A stretch of 36,907 bases of DNA, taken from Candidatus Woesearchaeota archaeon (GTDB lineage: Archaea > Nanobdellota > Nanobdellia > Pacearchaeales > GW2011-AR1). The first letter of the stretch is position 1, and every line of letters begins with the position of its first letter. The stretch covers positions 1 to 36,907 of the forward strand of contig CAYHMF010000001.1 of NCBI GenBank assembly GCA_964357655.1. The letters are read 5' to 3'. The notes under the pieces were generated by a model. The model ran no database searches. It saw only the letters and a program-made list of their open reading frames with translations, and was not told where the DNA came from. Shown here piece by piece: positions 2,056 through 27,261 of the stretch. Made by a program: the position numbers and the translations under genes.

Positions 2056-2113
2056 AGTTTATTGAAGAGTTTGTTATTTAAAAAACTTTATTTTTAGAGT
2101 TATTGCCAATTTA

Positions 2114-2156
2114 CCGCAAGTTCAACCCATAAATTAATAATTCACGACGAGCAGAT
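2114..2156 (+). repeat. R2 partial copy
   Basis: The exact 23-mer aaattaataattcacgacgagca (2131-2153) equals 27171-27193. The flanking ccgcaagttcaaccca is a degenerate match to tcgcagatttaactta. Confidence 0.7.
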
Positions 2157-5072: not shown

Positions 5073-5791
5073 AAATCGCGATAGTTTGTTGTTTGCACGG
5101 AAACGAGAAATACGGATTGGAAGTTTTAAAAGGGCTTCCGTCCGCCTTCTCTTTTTTTATTGGGAATAAAAGGGCGATGATTGAGAATAAAAGATTTATT
5201 GATTCTGATTTGAATAGGTGCTTTCCAGGAAAACCCCATGGAAATTATGAGGAAAAAAGAGCTTTTGAGTTGGTAAAATCTCTTAAGGATTTTGATTATG
5301 TAATTGATTTGCATTCGTCGTCGAATAATTGTTCTTTGTTTGGGATAATTACAAAACCAAATACCGAAAAAATAGAATTCGCTAAAAGATTGGGATTAAA
5401 AAGATTGGTAATAATGCCTAAAAATTTTGCTAGTGGGCAAGCACTGATAGATTTTACCAAATGCGGAATTAGTCTGGAAATTGGCCCCCATAAAAATAAA
5501 GATAATGTTAGGAAAGTTTCGGAAAAAATTAAAAATTTATTAGAAAATAAAGGCAAAAATAATAATCTGGAAATTTTTGAAGTGTTTGGGAAATTAATTA
5601 AAAAATATGATAAAGTTTTAATCAATAATTTTGATTTTGTAAAAATGGGTCAGCCAATTACAGAAAATTTTGAAGGAGATAGGCAATTCGCAGAATTTGA
5701 TTTTGTAGCTATTCTTGTTGATGAAGAATCTTACGGAAATGTTTTATGTTTAGTGGGAAAACAAGTAAATTTAAAAGTAATGAAAGATTAG
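5069..5791 (+). CDS. succinylglutamate desuccinylase/aspartoacylase (AstE/AspA, M14-like zinc hydrolase) family protein
   Basis: 'CCLHGNEKYG' (HxxE zinc ligands), 'DLNRCFPG' and 'DLHSS' motifs in the family order. Confidence 0.7.
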   Translation: MKIAIVCCLHGNEKYGLEVLKGLPSAFSFFIGNKRAMIENKRFIDSDLNRCFPGKPHGNYEEKRAFELVKSLKDFDYVIDLHSSSNNCSLFGIITKPNTEKIEFAKRLGLKRLVIMPKNFASGQALIDFTKCGISLEIGPHKNKDNVRKVSEKIKNLLENKGKNNNLEIFEVFGKLIKKYDKVLINNFDFVKMGQPITENFEGDRQFAEFDFVAILVDEESYGNVLCLVGKQVNLKVMKD

Positions 5792-5792
5792 T

Positions 5793-7028
5793 ATGAACAT
5801 GATAAAGAAAGAGGCAAAGAGAACTTTGCAAAATTCAAAAAATCGCAAAATTCTCATCGAGAGCATTTTGAAAATTCCTTCAAAAAAGCAAGAAATAGGA
5901 GTTATTCAAACTTCTCCAAAGGTAACTCCTTACGATGTTCAGGGAGACATTGATTATGATAAATTAGTCAAGGAATTTGGAGTTAGCAGAATCGATAACA
6001 AGTTACTCTCGGAAATTAAGAAACATTCTGGGGAATTGCATCATATGTTGAGAAGAGGAATATTTTTTGCGCATCGAGATTTAAAACCTATTTTGGATGA
6101 ATACGATAAAGGAAATAAATTTTTTCTTTATACTGGTTGCGGGCCTTCTGGGCCAATTCATTTGGGGCATTTGGGGACTTGGGTTTTTACAAAATGGTTG
6201 CAGGATGTTTTTGATGTTGAGCTGTGGTTTCAGTTTACCGACGACGAAAAGTTTTTGTATAAGAATCAATCTTATGAAGAGATTCAAAAATGGACATATG
6301 AAAATATGCTGGATGTAATTGCACTTGGTTTTAATCCAAAGAAGACGCATTTTTTGATTGACACAAAACACGCAGGAATTATGTATCCAGAGGCAATAAA
6401 AATAGCCAAGAAAATAAATTTTTCGACGATAAAAGCTGCGTTTGGATTTACTGATGCAAATAATATTGGAAGCATTTTTTATACGAGCATGCAGGCAGTT
6501 CCAGTTATTTTGCCGAGTGTTTTGAAGGGCAAAAAAATTCCTTGTTTAATTCCGCTTGCAATAGACCAGGATCCTCATTTCAGAGTTGCGAGAGATGTTT
6601 ATCCAAAGATTGGGCACCCAAAACCCGCAATTATTCATTCGGTGTTTTTACCTCCTTTAACTGGGATGCAAGGAAAGATGAGCAGTAGTGAGTCTAATAT
6701 AGCAATTCTGACTACAGATTCCCCCGAAGAAGTGAAAAGAAAAATAAACAAGTACGCTTTTTCAGGAGGGCAGGCGACAATTGAAGAGCACAGAAAAAAA
6801 GGAGGGAATCCCGACGTCGATGTTTCATTCCAATACTTAAGATTCTTTTTTGAACCAGATGATAAAAAACTTGAAAAAATTTACAACGATTATAAATCAG
6901 GAAAACTTCTTACTGGAGATTTGAAAAAAATTTTAATAGAAAAAATAAATGCTTTCTTAAAAGAGCACCAGAAAAAAAGAGAACTCGCGAAAAAGCAAGT
7001 CGATAATTTTATTTTTAAGATTCAGTAA
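5793..7028 (+). CDS. trpS: tryptophan--tRNA ligase (archaeal/eukaryotic type) with a ~44-aa N-terminal extension encoded by repeat R1
   Basis: Class I signatures 'GPSGPIHLGHL' (HIGH) and 'KMSSS' (KMSKS). The 'VTPYDVQGDIDYDKLVKEFG' entry is typical of archaeal TrpRS. The start lies 1 nt after the upstream stop. Confidence 0.9.
   Translation: MNMIKKEAKRTLQNSKNRKILIESILKIPSKKQEIGVIQTSPKVTPYDVQGDIDYDKLVKEFGVSRIDNKLLSEIKKHSGELHHMLRRGIFFAHRDLKPILDEYDKGNKFFLYTGCGPSGPIHLGHLGTWVFTKWLQDVFDVELWFQFTDDEKFLYKNQSYEEIQKWTYENMLDVIALGFNPKKTHFLIDTKHAGIMYPEAIKIAKKINFSTIKAAFGFTDANNIGSIFYTSMQAVPVILPSVLKGKKIPCLIPLAIDQDPHFRVARDVYPKIGHPKPAIIHSVFLPPLTGMQGKMSSSESNIAILTTDSPEEVKRKINKYAFSGGQATIEEHRKKGGNPDVDVSFQYLRFFFEPDDKKLEKIYNDYKSGKLLTGDLKKILIEKINAFLKEHQKKRELAKKQVDNFIFKIQ
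5818..5921 (+). repeat. R1 copy A: 104-nt module shared by the 5' coding ends of three genes
   Basis: 97/104 identical to the reverse complement of 21479-21582. Also matches 26868-26994 (reverse complement). Confidence 0.9.
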
Positions 7029-7780
7029 TTTTCGAAATTATAAAAATATGCATGAAGTTTTTTTCCCCACGGAGTTCTTAGGTTAACGTCGACTTTTTCA
7101 AGATATTTTACAGGAATTCTATTTCCTTTTTTATCTAGTTGAAATGTTTTACCGTCTTCTTTTTTCAAAAATGCCCATCCTGGAAGACTATATGCTTTTG
7201 CGCATTTTGAATTTGTGCAGTACATTGGGTCTTTTGCCTTAACCATATAATTTGTTGCATTTACCAGCGCTTTTTTAACTTTTATTGGTTCTCCTCCAAG
7301 AATTTTTTCTGATAAATTTTTGCATTTGCTCCAAGTTTCTTCGCCCAAATATTTTTCTGGATTCATGATTTTTCTGTAATTTGGGTCCCATTTATTAAAT
7401 GTTGAAAATTGAAGATCTTTTAAAAGAGCGTTTTTAATTCCCAAGTCATTTATTCTATTAATCATTACTGCCGACGCGCCAAGCAAATAATCATTTGTGA
7501 ATTCGCTTCTTCCTTCTCCACAGAGCGCTTGCGCCAAAAGTTTTCTATTCTTGTGAGTATTATCTTTAGGATGGGAATATTTTATTGTCGTGTAAGTCGG
7601 ATTTCTTAAAGTTTGAGTTTCAATATTTTCCAAACTTTGAGGAAAGAGAACTGATGTCAATATTCCAGCTCCAACTATATACGGGGAAATGTCCCAAACT
7701 TTTTTAGAAGCTCTCAATATTTTTTCCCCAAAAGATTTTTTTCTTTCTCCGAGAGACTTCTCTTTTTTTCTGTTTTCCAT
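7022..7780 (-). CDS. membrane-anchored protein with a SleB/Hydrolase_2-like cell-wall hydrolase domain
   Basis: 252 aa. N-terminal TM 'ISPYIVGAGILTSVLF'. 'LLAQALCGEGRSEF...GASAVMINRIND' resembles the lLArvi.aEarge....aVa.Vv.NRv core of SleB-type hydrolases. Confidence 0.5.
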   Translation of the reverse strand: MENRKKEKSLGERKKSFGEKILRASKKVWDISPYIVGAGILTSVLFPQSLENIETQTLRNPTYTTIKYSHPKDNTHKNRKLLAQALCGEGRSEFTNDYLLGASAVMINRINDLGIKNALLKDLQFSTFNKWDPNYRKIMNPEKYLGEETWSKCKNLSEKILGGEPIKVKKALVNATNYMVKAKDPMYCTNSKCAKAYSLPGWAFLKKEDGKTFQLDKKGNRIPVKYLEKVDVNLRTPWGKKLHAYFYNFENY

Positions 7781-7882: not shown

Positions 7883-8314
7883 ATGGAAAAACAAATACAT
7901 GCAAATCCTGCAAGTGAAAAGTTTAAGGGGAAATTTACTTACGCAATTGTAAAAGTTCCTGGAGAAGAAATTTATGTTCTTTTAGAGAAATCTAACCTCG
8001 GGGGAGAATTAATGGAAAAGAGAATTAGAAAAGGTTGGGCAGAATTTGAGCAAACATATCAGTATGAACCAGTAATGATCTATGATGGCGTTAAGCAATG
8101 GAGCGATAAGGACGATGGCGTTTGTTTAGATGGACCAGAAAAAATTCTTTCTCTTACTGTTGGAAAATTGAATCTTGGAAGAAAAATAAGCGAATCTGAG
8201 TTGGCCAATCTTTTGATAGAAAAGAAAAAAGAAAAAAGAAAATACAATTCAGACGATTTTTTTGTTGAGGAAGAAAAAACCGAATACGATTTGGATAGTT
8301 TTTTACCTAGGTGA
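7883..8314 (+). CDS. hypothetical protein
   Basis: 143-aa ORF with a correctly spaced TATA box. No motif recognised. Confidence 0.5.
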   Translation: MEKQIHANPASEKFKGKFTYAIVKVPGEEIYVLLEKSNLGGELMEKRIRKGWAEFEQTYQYEPVMIYDGVKQWSDKDDGVCLDGPEKILSLTVGKLNLGRKISESELANLLIEKKKEKRKYNSDDFFVEEEKTEYDLDSFLPR

Positions 8315-8371
8315 TTATTTTTCTTTTTTGAAGCATTATCAACGTAACCGAATATTTTTAAAGCAAAATTT

Positions 8372-8438
8372 GTACTCCTCGCTTTACTCGTCGTGAATTA
8401 TTAACAATTAATTAAATCTGCGAACGAAAGTGAGTAGC
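8372..8438 (-). repeat. R2 copy (inverted relative to the 27140-27206 copy): intergenic repeat, candidate small RNA
   Basis: The reverse complement aligns along about 67 nt with 27140-27206. The alignment includes an exact 18-mer, ttaataattcacgacgag. Confidence 0.8.
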
Positions 8439-8441
8439 TAA

Positions 8442-8462
8442 TCGCCTTCGGCGAGAATTTTT
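8442..8462 (+). terminator. GC-rich hairpin followed by a T5 run, immediately after the R2 core
   Basis: tcgcc-ttc-ggcga (5-bp stem) followed by gaattttt. Confidence 0.3.
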
Positions 8463-8515
8463 AAAGTTTTGAGTTTTATTTATAGACAAACTGATAACCC
8501 CCTATTTCGAATAAT

Positions 8516-8523
8516 TTTATAAA
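8516..8523 (+). promoter_or_regulatory. TATA-like box (tttataaa)
   Basis: 22 nt upstream of the thrS ATG at 8545. Confidence 0.5.
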
Positions 8524-8544
8524 CATCCTTTTTCTTTTATTATT

Positions 8545-10245
8545 ATGAAGATATTAAGTTTGCATACAGATTATATTAAGTTCAAGCCATTGAAAAAAGC
8601 GTTGAAGAAAATTGCGGATTTGCCTGAAAAGGAAATGGGAGTTGTTAAGATTGATGAGGCTTTGACAATTTTGACTGCTGTTGAAAAAAGTGACACAGAT
8701 ATTCAGGGAGTTGTTAATGCACTTGTCGAGAATGTGAAAGATATTGCTAAACAGGTCAATGCCAAAAATATAGTTTTGTATCCTTACGCGCATTTGTCGT
8801 CGAATTTGGCGAGTCCTGACGTCGCTATTGAGGTTTTGGAAAAATCAGAGAAGGCGCTGAAAAAATTTTTTAACGTCGTCAAAGCACCTTTTGGATATTA
8901 CAAAGAATTTGAAATGAAAGTTAAAGGGCATCCATTGAGTGAGTTGAGTCGAGAGATAAAAGTTGAAGGAAAACTTGGCGAAGAAAAATATGATCCTCAA
9001 CAATTGCTTAGAGAGATTTCAAAGTCTAAATTGGATACTTCTAAACTGAAAGAAAATGATCACAGAATTCTTGGACAGCAAATGGATTTGTATAGCTTTA
9101 ATGAAACTGCGCCAGGAATGGTTTTTTGGCACAATAATGGTCTGATAATCAAGAATGAATTAATTAATTTTTGGAGGGAGATGCACAGAAAGGCAGAATA
9201 CCAAGAAATTTCAACTCCACAAATTCTCGACGAGAAACTATGGAAAATTTCTGGGCATTGGGAAAAATACAAAGAGAATATTTTTTTGACTGATTATGAA
9301 AAAAGAAAATTCGCAGTTAAACCAATGAATTGTCCTGGAGGAATGTTAGTTTACAAAAACAAACCAAAAAGTTACAAAGAACTTCCGTTGAGAGTTGGAG
9401 AGTTAGGAATAGTTCACAGACAAGAACTTTCAGGAGTTTTGGGGGGATTATTCAGAGTAATACAATTCACTCAAGATGATGCTCACATATTCTGCACTGA
9501 AAAACAAATTGAAGATGAGATTGCTAATATTATTAATTTGGTTGATATCTTTTATAAAAAGTTTGATTTGCCTTACCATGTTGAATTTTCTACTCGCCCG
9601 GAGAAAAGGATTGGCTCGGATAAATTATGGAATAAGGCAGAGAAAATTCTCGAGCAGACTTTGAAAAAGAAAAAAATTGCGTTTAAAGTAAATAAAGGCG
9701 ACGGGGCTTTTTACGGGCCGAAAATTGATTTTCACGTCAAGGATTCTTTGGGACGAACATGGCAGTGCGGAACAGTTCAATTGGATTTTGCGATGCCAGA
9801 AAGGTTTAATTTAGAATATACTGAAAATGACAATAAAAGAAAAAGACCGGTGATGATTCATAGAACAATTTACGGAAGTCTTGAAAGATTCATCGGAATT
9901 TTAATTGAACATACGAGAGGAAGACTTCCCGTTTGGTTGGCTCCGACGCAGGTTAGAGTTTTGAGTTTTACTGACAGGAATGAAAATTATGCTAAAGAAA
10001 TTATTAAGAAACTTGGAGAGAAGATTCCTAATTTGAGAATCGACGCTGATTTTACGCAAACAACTGTTCCGTCGAAGGTGAAGGACGCAGAGATTATGAA
10101 AGTTCCGTATATAATTGTGGTTGGAGATAGGGAAGAAAAAGAAAGAACTTTGGCAGTTAGAAAAAAGGGCGACAATAAAATTGAAATGATTAAAGTTAAT
10201 GATTTTATTGAAAAATTGAAGAAAGAGATTGCGGAGAGGGATTAA
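8545..10245 (+). CDS. thrS: threonine--tRNA ligase, archaeal type with N-terminal editing domain
   Basis: The N-terminal 'MKILSLHTDYIKFKP...LYPYAHLSS' matches the archaeal ThrRS editing domain. Class II core: 'FWHNNG', 'RQELSG', 'FTQDDAHIF', 'GAFYGPKIDF'. C-terminal anticodon-binding domain present. Confidence 0.9.
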   Translation: MKILSLHTDYIKFKPLKKALKKIADLPEKEMGVVKIDEALTILTAVEKSDTDIQGVVNALVENVKDIAKQVNAKNIVLYPYAHLSSNLASPDVAIEVLEKSEKALKKFFNVVKAPFGYYKEFEMKVKGHPLSELSREIKVEGKLGEEKYDPQQLLREISKSKLDTSKLKENDHRILGQQMDLYSFNETAPGMVFWHNNGLIIKNELINFWREMHRKAEYQEISTPQILDEKLWKISGHWEKYKENIFLTDYEKRKFAVKPMNCPGGMLVYKNKPKSYKELPLRVGELGIVHRQELSGVLGGLFRVIQFTQDDAHIFCTEKQIEDEIANIINLVDIFYKKFDLPYHVEFSTRPEKRIGSDKLWNKAEKILEQTLKKKKIAFKVNKGDGAFYGPKIDFHVKDSLGRTWQCGTVQLDFAMPERFNLEYTENDNKRKRPVMIHRTIYGSLERFIGILIEHTRGRLPVWLAPTQVRVLSFTDRNENYAKEIIKKLGEKIPNLRIDADFTQTTVPSKVKDAEIMKVPYIIVVGDREEKERTLAVRKKGDNKIEMIKVNDFIEKLKKEIAERD

Positions 10246-18674: not shown

Positions 18675-19505
18675 AACTTTGAGATATTTTAAATCAACAT
18701 TTTTTCTTATTTCTTTTAGGGCTCTCACAATTTTTATGTCTTTTCTATGCCCAATAATATCACAATAAAATGTAAATTCTTCAAGACTTCCGTCCTTAGG
18801 TATTGATTGAATGTAAGTCATACTTATTTTTTCTTTTTCTAATTCTTTTAAAAAACTATAAAGTAAACCTGCCCTTGTTGTAACTTTTCCTTTTTCTCCG
18901 TTTGCGAATTCAAATATTAATGTTGTTTTATCATTTCCCGTCGGGATATTGTCTTTTTTTCCAATCACTGCAAATTTTGTTTGGTTGTTATTTTTATCTT
19001 GGATTGCTTCTTCCAAAATAGTCAAATCGTAAATTTCTGCTGTTCTTTTAGGAATAATAACTGCTCTTGTTGGGTCGTTTAATTTTTTTATTTTTTCTGC
19101 GGCAGTAGCCGTCGAGTTTTCAGGGATTGTTTGAGCCCCAATTTCATTAATTTTTTTCATGCATTGTTCCAGTGCTTTGTCTTTTGAATGGATGAATTTT
19201 ATTTTTTTGATATTTATTTTGGAAATTGATGCTAAGCACATATCTATTTTTAGGATTTCTTCGTCGTAAATCATGAACTTTTTTTCCCTCAAATTTTGTA
19301 GAGTTTCGTTCACCCACGCTGCGCCTCCAGAAGAACTTAACAAAGGGACTATTGCCAAATCTATTTCCCCTTTTTCTATTCCAGTAAAACAACCACTTAT
19401 CGTCGTGTAAAATTTAAATTTGGACTTGAACTTCTTCCTTTTAAGATAATTGTGCCCTGCTTCTGCCGAGAATGTTCCGTCTGGTCCTAATAATCCAAAT
19501 TTCAT
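18648..19505 (-). CDS. pheA: prephenate dehydratase with C-terminal ACT domain
   Basis: 'LLGPDGTFSAEA' entry, 'NQTKFAVIG' (TRF-like motif), and an ACT-like C-terminus. Confidence 0.8.
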   Translation of the reverse strand: MKFGLLGPDGTFSAEAGHNYLKRKKFKSKFKFYTTISGCFTGIEKGEIDLAIVPLLSSSGGAAWVNETLQNLREKKFMIYDEEILKIDMCLASISKINIKKIKFIHSKDKALEQCMKKINEIGAQTIPENSTATAAEKIKKLNDPTRAVIIPKRTAEIYDLTILEEAIQDKNNNQTKFAVIGKKDNIPTGNDKTTLIFEFANGEKGKVTTRAGLLYSFLKELEKEKISMTYIQSIPKDGSLEEFTFYCDIIGHRKDIKIVRALKEIRKNVDLKYLKVLGSYPMYN

Positions 19506-20884: not shown

Positions 20885-21610
20885 TTATTTTTGAGCGATA
20901 AAATTAATCATCATTTCTGAATTGTGCGTACTTTTGATTTTAAATCCGGCGTCTTTAAACAAATCGTGAATTTCTTTTTCTTCATAAAAGTAATAATATC
21001 TTAGTCCTTTATCTGTCCATCTAATGTATTTTTCTTTTTTAGAATTCTTGAATCTTTTTGATTTGAAGTTCCAGACACCAATATCTGTTTCTGCTCCAGG
21101 TTTTAAAACCCTGAATAATTCTTCGATTACTTTTTTACGATTTTCTTCTCCGTGGATGCATGTGAGAACAGCTATGCAGATTGCAGAATCAAAATAATTG
21201 TCTTCAAAAGGAAGTTTTGCGATATCTGCCACAAAAAATTCTGCTTCGATATTTAATTTTTTTGCTCTTTTTTTGGCTAGTTTAATCATCTCTTTTGAAA
21301 AATCTACAAGATGCATTTTTCCTTTTGTTTTAAGATTAATTAAGTGTCTTCCACTTCCACTTCCCAAATCAAGAATATTTCCTTTTTTATTTTTAAGAAA
21401 TTCTAAAACATGTTCTGCAGGGGTTGTTTTAAATTCTGTCCATTCAGACGCAATCGCATCCCATATTTCTTTTTGATTCTTTGGAGAAGTTTGAATAATT
21501 CCTATTCCTTGCTTTTTCGAAGGAATTTTCAAAGTGCTCTGTATGAGAATTTTGCGATTCTTTGAATTTTGCAAAGTTCTCTTTACTAATTTCTTTTCAA
21601 TATTTTCCAT
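20885..21610 (-). CDS. class I SAM-dependent methyltransferase with an R1-encoded N-terminal extension
   Basis: Motif I 'ILDLGSGSGRH' and post-I 'VDFS'. The first ~45 aa are nearly identical to the TrpRS N-terminus. Confidence 0.8.
   Translation of the reverse strand: MENIEKKLVKRTLQNSKNRKILIQSTLKIPSKKQGIGIIQTSPKNQKEIWDAIASEWTEFKTTPAEHVLEFLKNKKGNILDLGSGSGRHLINLKTKGKMHLVDFSKEMIKLAKKRAKKLNIEAEFFVADIAKLPFEDNYFDSAICIAVLTCIHGEENRKKVIEELFRVLKPGAETDIGVWNFKSKRFKNSKKEKYIRWTDKGLRYYYFYEEKEIHDLFKDAGFKIKSTHNSEMMINFIAQK
21479..21582 (-). repeat. R1 copy B
   Basis: 97/104 identity to 5818-5921 in the sense orientation of its host gene. Confidence 0.9.
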
Positions 21611-26630: not shown

Positions 26631-26957
26631 CTATTTCTCAGATTCCTTTATTAATTGCACACCTGTAACAATTCCCCATATCCAAGAAGACACAGGCCCG
26701 AATATTAGAATCGGAACACCTATTAATAATCCAATAATACTCACGATGCCTATTATAAATAAAATACCAGTAAATAATCCCCCAATTAAAAGAACCAGTT
26801 GCCATATCCCTTCTTTCGTCTTGCCACCAATTAAACTTCCCAATCCAGGGAGTATTAGTATGTTAAGAGAAGTTTGAATAATTCCTATCTCTTGCTTTTT
26901 TGAAGGAATTATTCCTTTTTCTTGCTTTTTTGAAGGAATTTTCAAAATGCTCTTCAT
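26631..26957 (-). CDS. small integral membrane protein whose 5' part is R1-derived; probably the downstream part of a frameshifted longer ORF
   Basis: 108 aa with two or three hydrophobic segments ('GIWQLVLLIGGLFTGILFIIGIVSIIGLLIGVPILIFGPV'). The N-terminal 'ILKIPSKKQE.GI' unit is duplicated. Confidence 0.6.
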   Translation of the reverse strand: MKSILKIPSKKQEKGIIPSKKQEIGIIQTSLNILILPGLGSLIGGKTKEGIWQLVLLIGGLFTGILFIIGIVSIIGLLIGVPILIFGPVSSWIWGIVTGVQLIKESEK

Positions 26958-26994
26958 GAGAATTTTGCGATTTTTGAATTTTGCAAAGTTCTCT
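26868..26994 (-). repeat. R1 copy C, with an internal 30-nt duplication and a 1-nt shorter A-run
   Basis: Aligns to copies A and B across agagaactttgcaaaattcaaa...caaacttct. Confidence 0.85.
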
Positions 26995-27139
26995 TAAGTA
27001 ATAAACAAGCTATTGCAAGAGACTCGCTTATTTTTCTTTTTTTAGCCATGTTTATACCAGGTATATTTGATTTATAAATTTATTTGAATTTGAAAGTGTT
27101 AAGCTATCGTGATTAACCCCCAATTTAAAATCCTATTTT

Positions 27140-27206
27140 GCTACTCACATTCGTTCGCAGATTTAACTTAAAATTAATAATTCACGACGAGCAAATGCGA
27201 GGAGTG
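27140..27206 (+). repeat. R2 copy: intergenic repeat, candidate small RNA
   Basis: Matches the reverse complement of 8372-8438. It also shares an exact 23-mer (27171-27193) with 2131-2153. Confidence 0.8.
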
Positions 27207-27261
27207 TGAATTTTATTTAAAGAATCCCCCTTTAAGTTCACAATATTTTGTTCAAATCAAA

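Follow-up and report, generated by a model that had tools for sequence, protein, structure and literature searches.

Introduction

The Correia/NEMIS elements of Neisseria are prokaryotic MITEs with regulatory side effects, which duplicate a TA at their target and carry -35/-10 boxes; the Sulfolobus MITEs SM1-SM4 share their ends with ISC partner elements in the same or in related genomes. The intergenic repeat described here, R2, resembles Correia/NEMIS in being short and non-coding, in its terminal inverted repeats, target duplication and tens of intergenic copies, as well as in its potential to form hairpins, its promoter- and terminator-like signals and the coexistence of full-length and internally deleted forms. 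It differs from them in its archaeal BRE/TATA sites and T-runs, its 9-bp duplication and its unrelated sequence, and effects on neighbouring genes are only putative. Throughout, G000 denotes the genome carrying the window, other G-numbers the genomes compared with it, L loci and C contigs. Like SM1-SM4, a sub-family in G082 shares its ends with an insertion sequence (G082:C9:25589-26676); unlike for SM1-SM4, no partner was found in the four genomes searched for the type present in G000, G070 and G144.

DPANN genomes are reported to be among the most MITE-dense of the archaea (PMC11602168). In Pyrobaculum calidifontis, MITE-like elements consist of inverted repeats flanking a conserved, sRNA-sized core with C/D boxes (Lui et al. 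2018, PMC6009581); they are confined to one species and absent from its close relatives, and it was suggested that MITEs spread small-RNA modules (PMC6009581). Both these elements and R2 are archaeal MITE-like repeats with a conserved core of sRNA size, but canonical C and D boxes and expression are found in Pyrobaculum, whereas for R2 expression is putative and TGATGA is present in 0 of 51 cores.

We conclude that Pacearchaeota-like DPANN archaea very probably harbour a non-autonomous DNA transposon (MITE), of which R2 is the internal core. The family is new; MITEs as such are a known and ordinary kind of element. Judging from the anatomy of the copies, the mobile unit would be a non-coding segment of ~155-260 bp with 14-17-bp terminal inverted repeats, (G)ATAYTGTYAAGTTATC ... 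AAGTTKACARTAT(C), moved in trans by a DDE-type transposase that duplicates 9 bp of the target, and an autonomous partner of the GATAYTGTYAAGTT type would be expected to end in GATAYTGTYAAGTTATC. A 9-bp-duplicating MITE so defined and common to several Pacearchaeota genera marks transposon exchange among co-occurring groundwater archaea, and a DPANN genome of 0.8 Mb tolerates, and perhaps uses, dense MITE families. Were the core transcribed, the spread of small-RNA modules by MITEs would have a second archaeal example after that of Pyrobaculum.

Genome and promoter matrix

The window, a stretch of 36,907 nt, is a whole contig of a 770-kb genome (0.77 Mb; 81 contigs, 32% G+C, 87% complete, coding density ~88%). 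Archaeal features of this genome include an intron-containing tRNA and an archaeal-type ThrRS, whose nearest relatives, 75-78% identical, carry the labels Candidatus Pacearchaeota or Nanoarchaeota. Metagenome contigs from the groundwater of Hainich well H41 (0.1-μm fraction) were at least 99.6% identical to G000 over the shared sequence, and exact 18-mer scans gave matches only in contigs of the same Hainich H41 population among metagenomes, and chance matches only among species genomes.

Promoter-like sites were scored with a matrix built from 15 tRNA promoters of G000, which themselves score 1.5-16.3, using a cut-off of 8.6 that is reached at 0.06% of genome positions. The tRNA genes of G000 share aaaaCTTTAAAAA ~31 nt ahead of the mature 5' end.

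The repeat family in the host genome

The original prediction had described R2 as a 67-nt intergenic repeat in three copies, at 27140-27206 (+), inverted at 8372-8438, and in part at 2114-2156. All three are real and lie at these positions, the partial copy sharing the exact 23-mer aaattaataattcacgacgagca, and their intergenic gaps (123 nt, 230 nt and ~210 nt) are long, as had been claimed. The family is, however, larger: a profile search of the 770-kb genome with nhmmer recovered ~45 copies, 43 of them at E<1e-3, on at least 30 contigs, with a similarity among copies well above chance (E-values 1e-17 to 1e-31). Likewise, the 67-nt unit does correspond to a conserved core, but the homologous unit extends over ~8333-8502 and 27092-27247 and ends in inverted repeats. 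What stood was that the repeats form a true intergenic family and have the potential to fold into hairpins.

All strong matches lay outside long ORFs, and many fell within 150 nt of a contig end, as expected of a dispersed repeat. The elements are ~155-260 bp long and strictly intergenic, with 127-394 bp, mostly 150-250 bp, between the terminal repeats; no ORF of at least 60 aa was found inside the window copies. Cores occur in a standard form of 74-77 nt (15 copies), in a long form whose AT-rich loop contains an insert of 32 nt (AAAGCTCCtAAtCAC...CTCGCTTT; 8 copies), in a form with the central part deleted (9 copies) and as the 3' half only (~10 copies, including window 2099-2152). The 32-nt insert was rejected as a separate mobile module, since it occurs inside R2 copies only.

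The features of the three window copies, A, B and C, are compiled in Table 1. Copy A is placed between the stop codon of a 143-aa ORF (8314) and the thrS promoter, with both terminal repeats degenerate, and its core gave a single-sequence fold of -12 kcal/mol (z = -0.95). Copy B lies 14 nt past the 3' end of an intron-containing tRNA-Ile(TAT) gene; its terminal repeats are GAAAGTGTTAAGCT (27092-27105, 3 mismatches) and AAGTTCACAATATT (27234-27247, 2 mismatches), and its left arm is short, without the GC hairpin and without a well-placed promoter (best score 4.4, 17 nt from the core). Copy C has lost the 3' stem arm and retains GTTATTGCCAATTT, which resembles a terminal repeat, as well as the opening bases of the core (TTTACCGC) and the block AATTAATAATTCACGACGAGC.

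Table 1. Coordinates of R2 elements and their parts in the window
Feature	Position	Strand	Basis or remark
Copy A, whole MITE, ~170 bp	8333..8502	-	wide alignment of 35 copies
Copy A, conserved core (R2 as originally predicted), imperfect long hairpin ACTnCTCACnTTCGTTCG ... CGAGCGAAnGCGAGGAGT	8366..8441	-	covariance model, 91.3 bits
Copy A, BRE/TATA-like site AAAACTTTAAAAATT	8456..8470	-	score 15.3, tRNA-promoter matrix
GC hairpin tcgcc-ttc-ggcga	8442..8454		part of the left arm in ~15 copies
T5 run after the GC hairpin	8458-8462	+	
T-run just past the core, AAATTTTGC, candidate archaeal terminator	8363..8371	-	AAATTTT kept in most copies
Copy A, left terminal inverted repeat, degenerate, GGGGTTATCAGTTTGTC	8485..8501	-	10/17 match to consensus GATATTGTCAAGTTATC; alignment by eye
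Copy A, right terminal inverted repeat, degenerate, GTTACGTTGATAATGC	8333..8348	-	consensus AAGTTTACAATATC; alignment by eye
Copy B, whole MITE, 156 bp	27092..27247	+	terminal repeats with 3 and 2 mismatches
Copy B, conserved core	27137..27213	+	covariance model, 98.9 bits
Copy C, truncated and internally deleted remnant	2099..2152	+	E = 0.04 by itself; has the exact 23-mer of copy B

With respect to gene context, copies between genes of the same direction were antisense in 13 cases and sense in 5, with a further 8 in divergent and 4 in convergent gene pairs. The outer end lay 45-55 nt ahead of a start codon in at least 8 cases, leaving the TATA of that gene between the two, which fits insertions tolerated only just upstream of core promoters. 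The same placement would suit a reading that we hold to be quite unlikely, in which the palindrome of the core, alone or together with the GC hairpin and T-run, is retained because it acts at the DNA level or in cis, either by binding a protein or by halting transcription in both directions or insulating tightly packed genes from one another, and so resembles bacterial REP/BIME or Correia elements: the copies are strictly intergenic, the 13 antisense against 5 sense insertions put the hairpin and T5 downstream of the upstream gene, and the outer ends keep their distance from the start codons. The orientation bias is weak, however (two-sided binomial p ~0.1), T-runs suffice for archaeal termination and are abundant in an AT-rich genome, and no binding protein is known. 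The ends of the element were rejected as a general promoter motif, TTKACAATAT not being found generally upstream of genes.

As a separate observation, contig C5 carries two identical R2 copies in inverted orientation, 14 kb apart, at 5146-5255 (-) and 19380-19489 (+), where the sequence to the left of one copy recurs to the right of the other (TCTTATCTT, 9/9), as it would if the two had recombined and thereby inverted the intervening 14 kb.

Element ends and target duplications

In a wide alignment of the G000 copies, homologous arms flank the core on both sides and terminate in mutually inverted repeats, GATATTGTCAAGTT(ATC) on the left and AAGTTTACAATATC on the right. The six copies of G070 are near-identical units of 192-199 bp, in which similarity stops exactly at GATACTGTYAAGTT ... 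AAGTTGACAGTAT(C) and the terminal repeats, GATACTGTTAAGTT / AAGTTGACAGTATC, have 0-2 mismatches. The elements of G070 and G000 share homology along most of their length, left repeat included, and we therefore regard them as one family. Direct repeats of 9 bp flank the G070 copies L089 and L097 (TTTGAGTAA and AATGAATAG, 9/9) and the G144 copy L113 (CTATGTTTA, 9/9), with a match of 8/9 at L101 and L105 of G070; altogether, 5 of the 14 G070/G144 copies match in at least 8 of 9 positions, compared to 0.2% of mismatched flank pairs. Terminal repeats, sharp boundaries and 9-bp duplications are the defining features of MITEs.

For G000, target duplications were barely above control (3/24 copies with at least 7/9 matches, versus 3% of controls), so that mobility, observed in the relatives, is inferred for G000. 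That they are mostly lost points to old insertions: the family is old in this genome, with target duplications mostly decayed and many derivatives. The original prediction had set against its RNA gene the distribution of a decaying MITE, inside genes as well as between them. The family does bear the hallmarks of such a MITE: terminal inverted repeats, 9-bp duplications in the relatives and numerous copies that are decayed, deleted or halved.

The element is lacking upstream of thrS in two relatives with 78%-identical ThrRS, where the gap upstream of thrS measures 78-90 nt and the neighbourhood reads hydrolase-like gene (-), gap, thrS (+). In G000, 764 nt separate the neighbouring 252-aa ORF (7022-7780) from thrS, accommodating an extra 143-aa ORF and the element, the end of which sits just upstream of the thrS TATA box. 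The thrS promoter itself, TTTTATAAAC-N23-ATG, is the same in G000 and the two relatives and scores 8.6 in G000. We note on the side that this promoter, in all three species (window 8511-8547; L138 2460-2503; L139 2460-2503), predicts a start 1-5 nt before the ATG, so that the thrS mRNA is probably leaderless, and that the 143-aa ORF (window 7883-8314), located where the two relatives have their gap of 78-90 nt, has no Pfam match and could be either a spurious ORF or a piece of inserted DNA.

Distribution in relatives and search for a partner

The distribution of R2 is patchy. With a covariance model of the core, it was found in 8 of 151 family genomes including G000, with 6 copies in G070, 12 in G144, 15 in G082 and single matches in G120, G074, G087 and G156; the match in G074, which lies inside a gene reading as a kae1/tsaD-type coding sequence, is probably spurious. 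A motif pattern identified R2 in 8 of 401 family genomes, its reversed control giving 0 matches. Searching 45 genomes from other families of the order with the covariance model yielded none, and a BLAST-level search of 40 relatives had returned one weak match only, the family being found later with the model. Among viral contigs, 32 pattern matches were obtained, none of them confirmed by the model, in agreement with a rough chance estimate. Copies in different genera occupy non-syntenic sites, and no synteny was seen among the copies of G120, G156, G200, G087 and G379 (single copies, two in G087), which argues against an ancestral orthologous gene.

Most G082 copies of the core reside in MITEs of 190-250 bp with different ends, AGTATCTCCGATGAG ... 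AGTATCGGAGATACT. The same ends delimit G082:C9:25589-26676, an insertion sequence of 1088 bp with a DDE_Tnp_1 transposase. Between G082-type and G000-type elements, similarity is limited to the core and ~40 nt downstream. An autonomous element combining GATAYTGTYAAGTT ends with a transposase was not found in G000, G070, G144 or G082 (87-92% complete). Among candidate partners, PF12762 transposases yielded none; PF00872 gave weak matches only, not beside matching ends; and the PF01609 element of G000 at C18 was rejected because its ends differ. The latter (C18: 8408-9416) is a 1-kb insertion sequence in its own right, encoding a DDE_Tnp_1 protein of 320 aa between the inverted ends CTTTGTCCGGAATA / TATTCCGGACAAAG and unrelated to R2. 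We also rejected the core as the 5' leader of a transposase gene, since no copy precedes a long ORF and the G082 partner has no core. In three G082 loci (L119, L123, L126), a hairpin-forming segment of ~55 nt (cgtttatgttttgacaa ... aacaaaacgtggg) is inserted in the 3' stem arm of the core, separating GCGAG from GAGGAGTG.

Conservation and folding of the core

Pairwise identity in G144 was 80% in the core, 47% and 59% in the arms and 29% outside the element, and column identity in G000 was 0.83-0.95 in the core versus 0.65-0.75 in the arms; in the young burst of G070 it was ~90% in all parts. Arms without a core were never found. The core is kept better than the arms, which a purely neutral MITE does not predict. 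As evidence for selection this is weakened by the ascertainment of copies through the core, by sub-families among the arms and by possible gene conversion.

Core conservation and the presence of two unrelated frames may nonetheless leave room for a functional core. It is doubtful, but conceivable, that the core is a selected module, either a transcribed hairpin RNA or a protein-binding site, which uses MITEs as vehicles and is kept while the arms decay, in at least two unrelated inverted-repeat frames and at least 8 Pacearchaeota genera; if so, it would represent a mobile small-RNA gene family in DPANN archaea. Spelled out for RNA, which we consider unlikely, small-RNA genes would ride on MITEs, the ~75-nt core being a hairpin RNA with its own promoter and T-run terminator that two or more unrelated MITE frames have spread and that selection preserves once it is inserted. 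In favour of such genes, conservation within the same copies is much higher in the core than in the arms, and cores resemble each other even where the terminal repeats of the elements are unrelated; the conserved positions come in blocks, and the loop varies in length and can hold an extra 32-nt segment; and the C/D-box sRNA cores of Pyrobaculum calidifontis, some of them highly expressed, set a precedent (PMC6009581). The conservation figures are biased, however, as copies were found by their core, and gene conversion between cores could mimic selection.

The core forms an imperfect palindrome around a variable, AT-rich loop, and single copies fold into a long closing stem modestly better than shuffled sequences (z = -0.95 to -3.2), but the RNAalifold consensus is nearly empty (-1.4 and -2.5 kcal/mol). 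Compensatory changes, by which the original prediction had proposed to judge the structure, are not in excess within the genome in either the core stem or the GC hairpin: in the specified core stem of 31 G000 copies, 82.7% of cells were paired versus 82.9% in shuffles, and in the small GC hairpin of 16 copies 76.3% versus 75.8%. Across genera there is a small excess of pairing-preserving double changes (20 cells versus 10.1 +/- 2.6 in shuffles), which would favour an RNA, although the alignment was structure-fitted and its sequences are related. Mismatches showed no strand asymmetry (112 G-U in the forward direction versus 89 A-C, equivalent to G-U on the other strand), which counts against an RNA and accords with a module acting at the DNA level, as does the conservation of the stems as sequence rather than merely as pairing, CGACGAG being invariant; the GC hairpin, however, decays without compensation, contrary to what such a module would suggest.

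No match to a known family lent support to an RNA gene. In the Rfam search called for by the original prediction, nothing in R2 attained the gathering score, which was passed in the window by two tRNAs only; a permissive search of Rfam 15 returned mir-308 as the best hit, at 20.6 bits, where the gathering score is 60. That neither C/D nor H/ACA boxes could be fitted was borne out, both being absent; among the 51 cores, TGATGA was found in 0 and CTGA in 2.

Promoter- and terminator-like signals

One window copy, copy A, does bear promoter-like and terminator-like signals, as had been pointed out: atatttttaaag on the plus strand (8352-8363), the hairpin tcgcc-ttc-ggcga and the T5 run all exist. 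On these grounds a plus-strand sRNA of ~70-90 nt had been proposed for 8340-8470, starting after atatttttaaag and ending at hairpin and T5. Hairpin and T5 are indeed present at copy A, the arm that carries them recurs in ~15 copies, and the strand is that of the flanking genes in 13 of 18 same-direction pairs. As a promoter, however, the plus-strand TATA scores 7.3, below the cut-off of 8.6, and would place the start within the core stem, at 8379-8383; the A/T block of atatttttaaag reaches only 4.9 when read on the other strand, the equivalent flank of the 27140 copy only 3.9, and the hairpin lacks covariation. We regard this plus-strand RNA as highly improbable, and the orientation proposed for it is probably wrong.

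The minus strand offers the better candidate. The site AAAACTTTAAAAATT (8470-8456) is the best within 260 nt, on par with the best tRNA promoters of the genome, and lies 28 nt upstream of the core, predicting a start at 8437-8441, that is, at the first bases of the core. If this TATA is used, the GC hairpin falls between it and the predicted start and would not be the terminator of the minus-strand RNA; its terminator-like look arises from the T5 that follows the hairpin on the plus strand. In a promoter scan of 24 copies, 9 reached the cut-off, 5 of these at a distance of 28-29 nt. Such BRE/TATA sites of tRNA grade ahead of the core start, together with AAATTTT after the core, are what small-RNA genes riding on MITEs would need; against such genes, promoter-grade sites are found in 9 of 24 copies only, 5 of them well spaced, and the elements of G070 and G144 do not have the promoter-bearing left arm at all.

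For the MITE as we understand it, the left arm of one sub-family would have gained a consensus archaeal BRE/TATA and the small GC hairpin, whereby some copies could give a minus-strand hairpin RNA of ~75-80 nt ending at the T-run; in the opposite direction, hairpin and T-run would offer termination signals to the upstream gene. Going by these predicted signals, minus-strand transcription up to the AAATTTT run may occur at some of the copies, 8333-8502 among them. Any such transcription would be confined to a sub-family and would not characterise the family as a whole.

Other repeats and tRNA-linked observations

A second, unrelated MITE of ~100 bp (GAGAACTTTGCAAAATTC ... ATTATTCAAACTTCTC) occurs in at least 35 copies of the genome, in the window at 26906-26995, 5801-5935 and 21479-21596. 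This 98-bp family has the same host and a similar copy number (at least 35) as R2 and is often found in the same gaps, adjoining R2 on C38, C45, C3, C13 and C34 and upstream of copy B; it differs in its unrelated sequence and ends (GAGAACTTTGCAAAATTC ...) and in lying also inside the 5' ends of genes, where R2 does not. R2 (~45 copies) and the 98-bp family (at least 35) explain most of the unusually long intergenic gaps of G000, as well as many contig breaks and some spurious small ORFs. The 108-aa ORF at 26631-26957, which overlaps a copy of the ~100-bp MITE, is probably not a gene. On C26 (2350-2500), a sequence of the 98-bp family forms a tandem duplication of ~75 bp, upstream of an R2 remnant with the right arm only (~2500-2548). 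A stretch of ~55 bp, 98-100% identical at no fewer than five contig ends (L070 1163-1217; C29, C38, C13, C4, C51), is another assembly-breaking repeat.

Directly upstream of the genes for tRNA-Trp(CCA) (C32 ~6324-6504) and tRNA-Val(GAC) (C43 ~5945-6053), a copy of the 98-bp MITE (... attattcaaacttctct) replaces the usual aaaaCTTTAAAAA box at -31, and the promoter of these two genes may be MITE-derived or missing. Finally, TTTGATTTGAACAAA, which includes the reverse complement of a T-arm-like GTTCAAATC, is common to the 3' trailers of three intron-containing tRNA genes (window 27247-27261, tRNA-Ile(GAT) on C22 and tRNA-Lys on C47).
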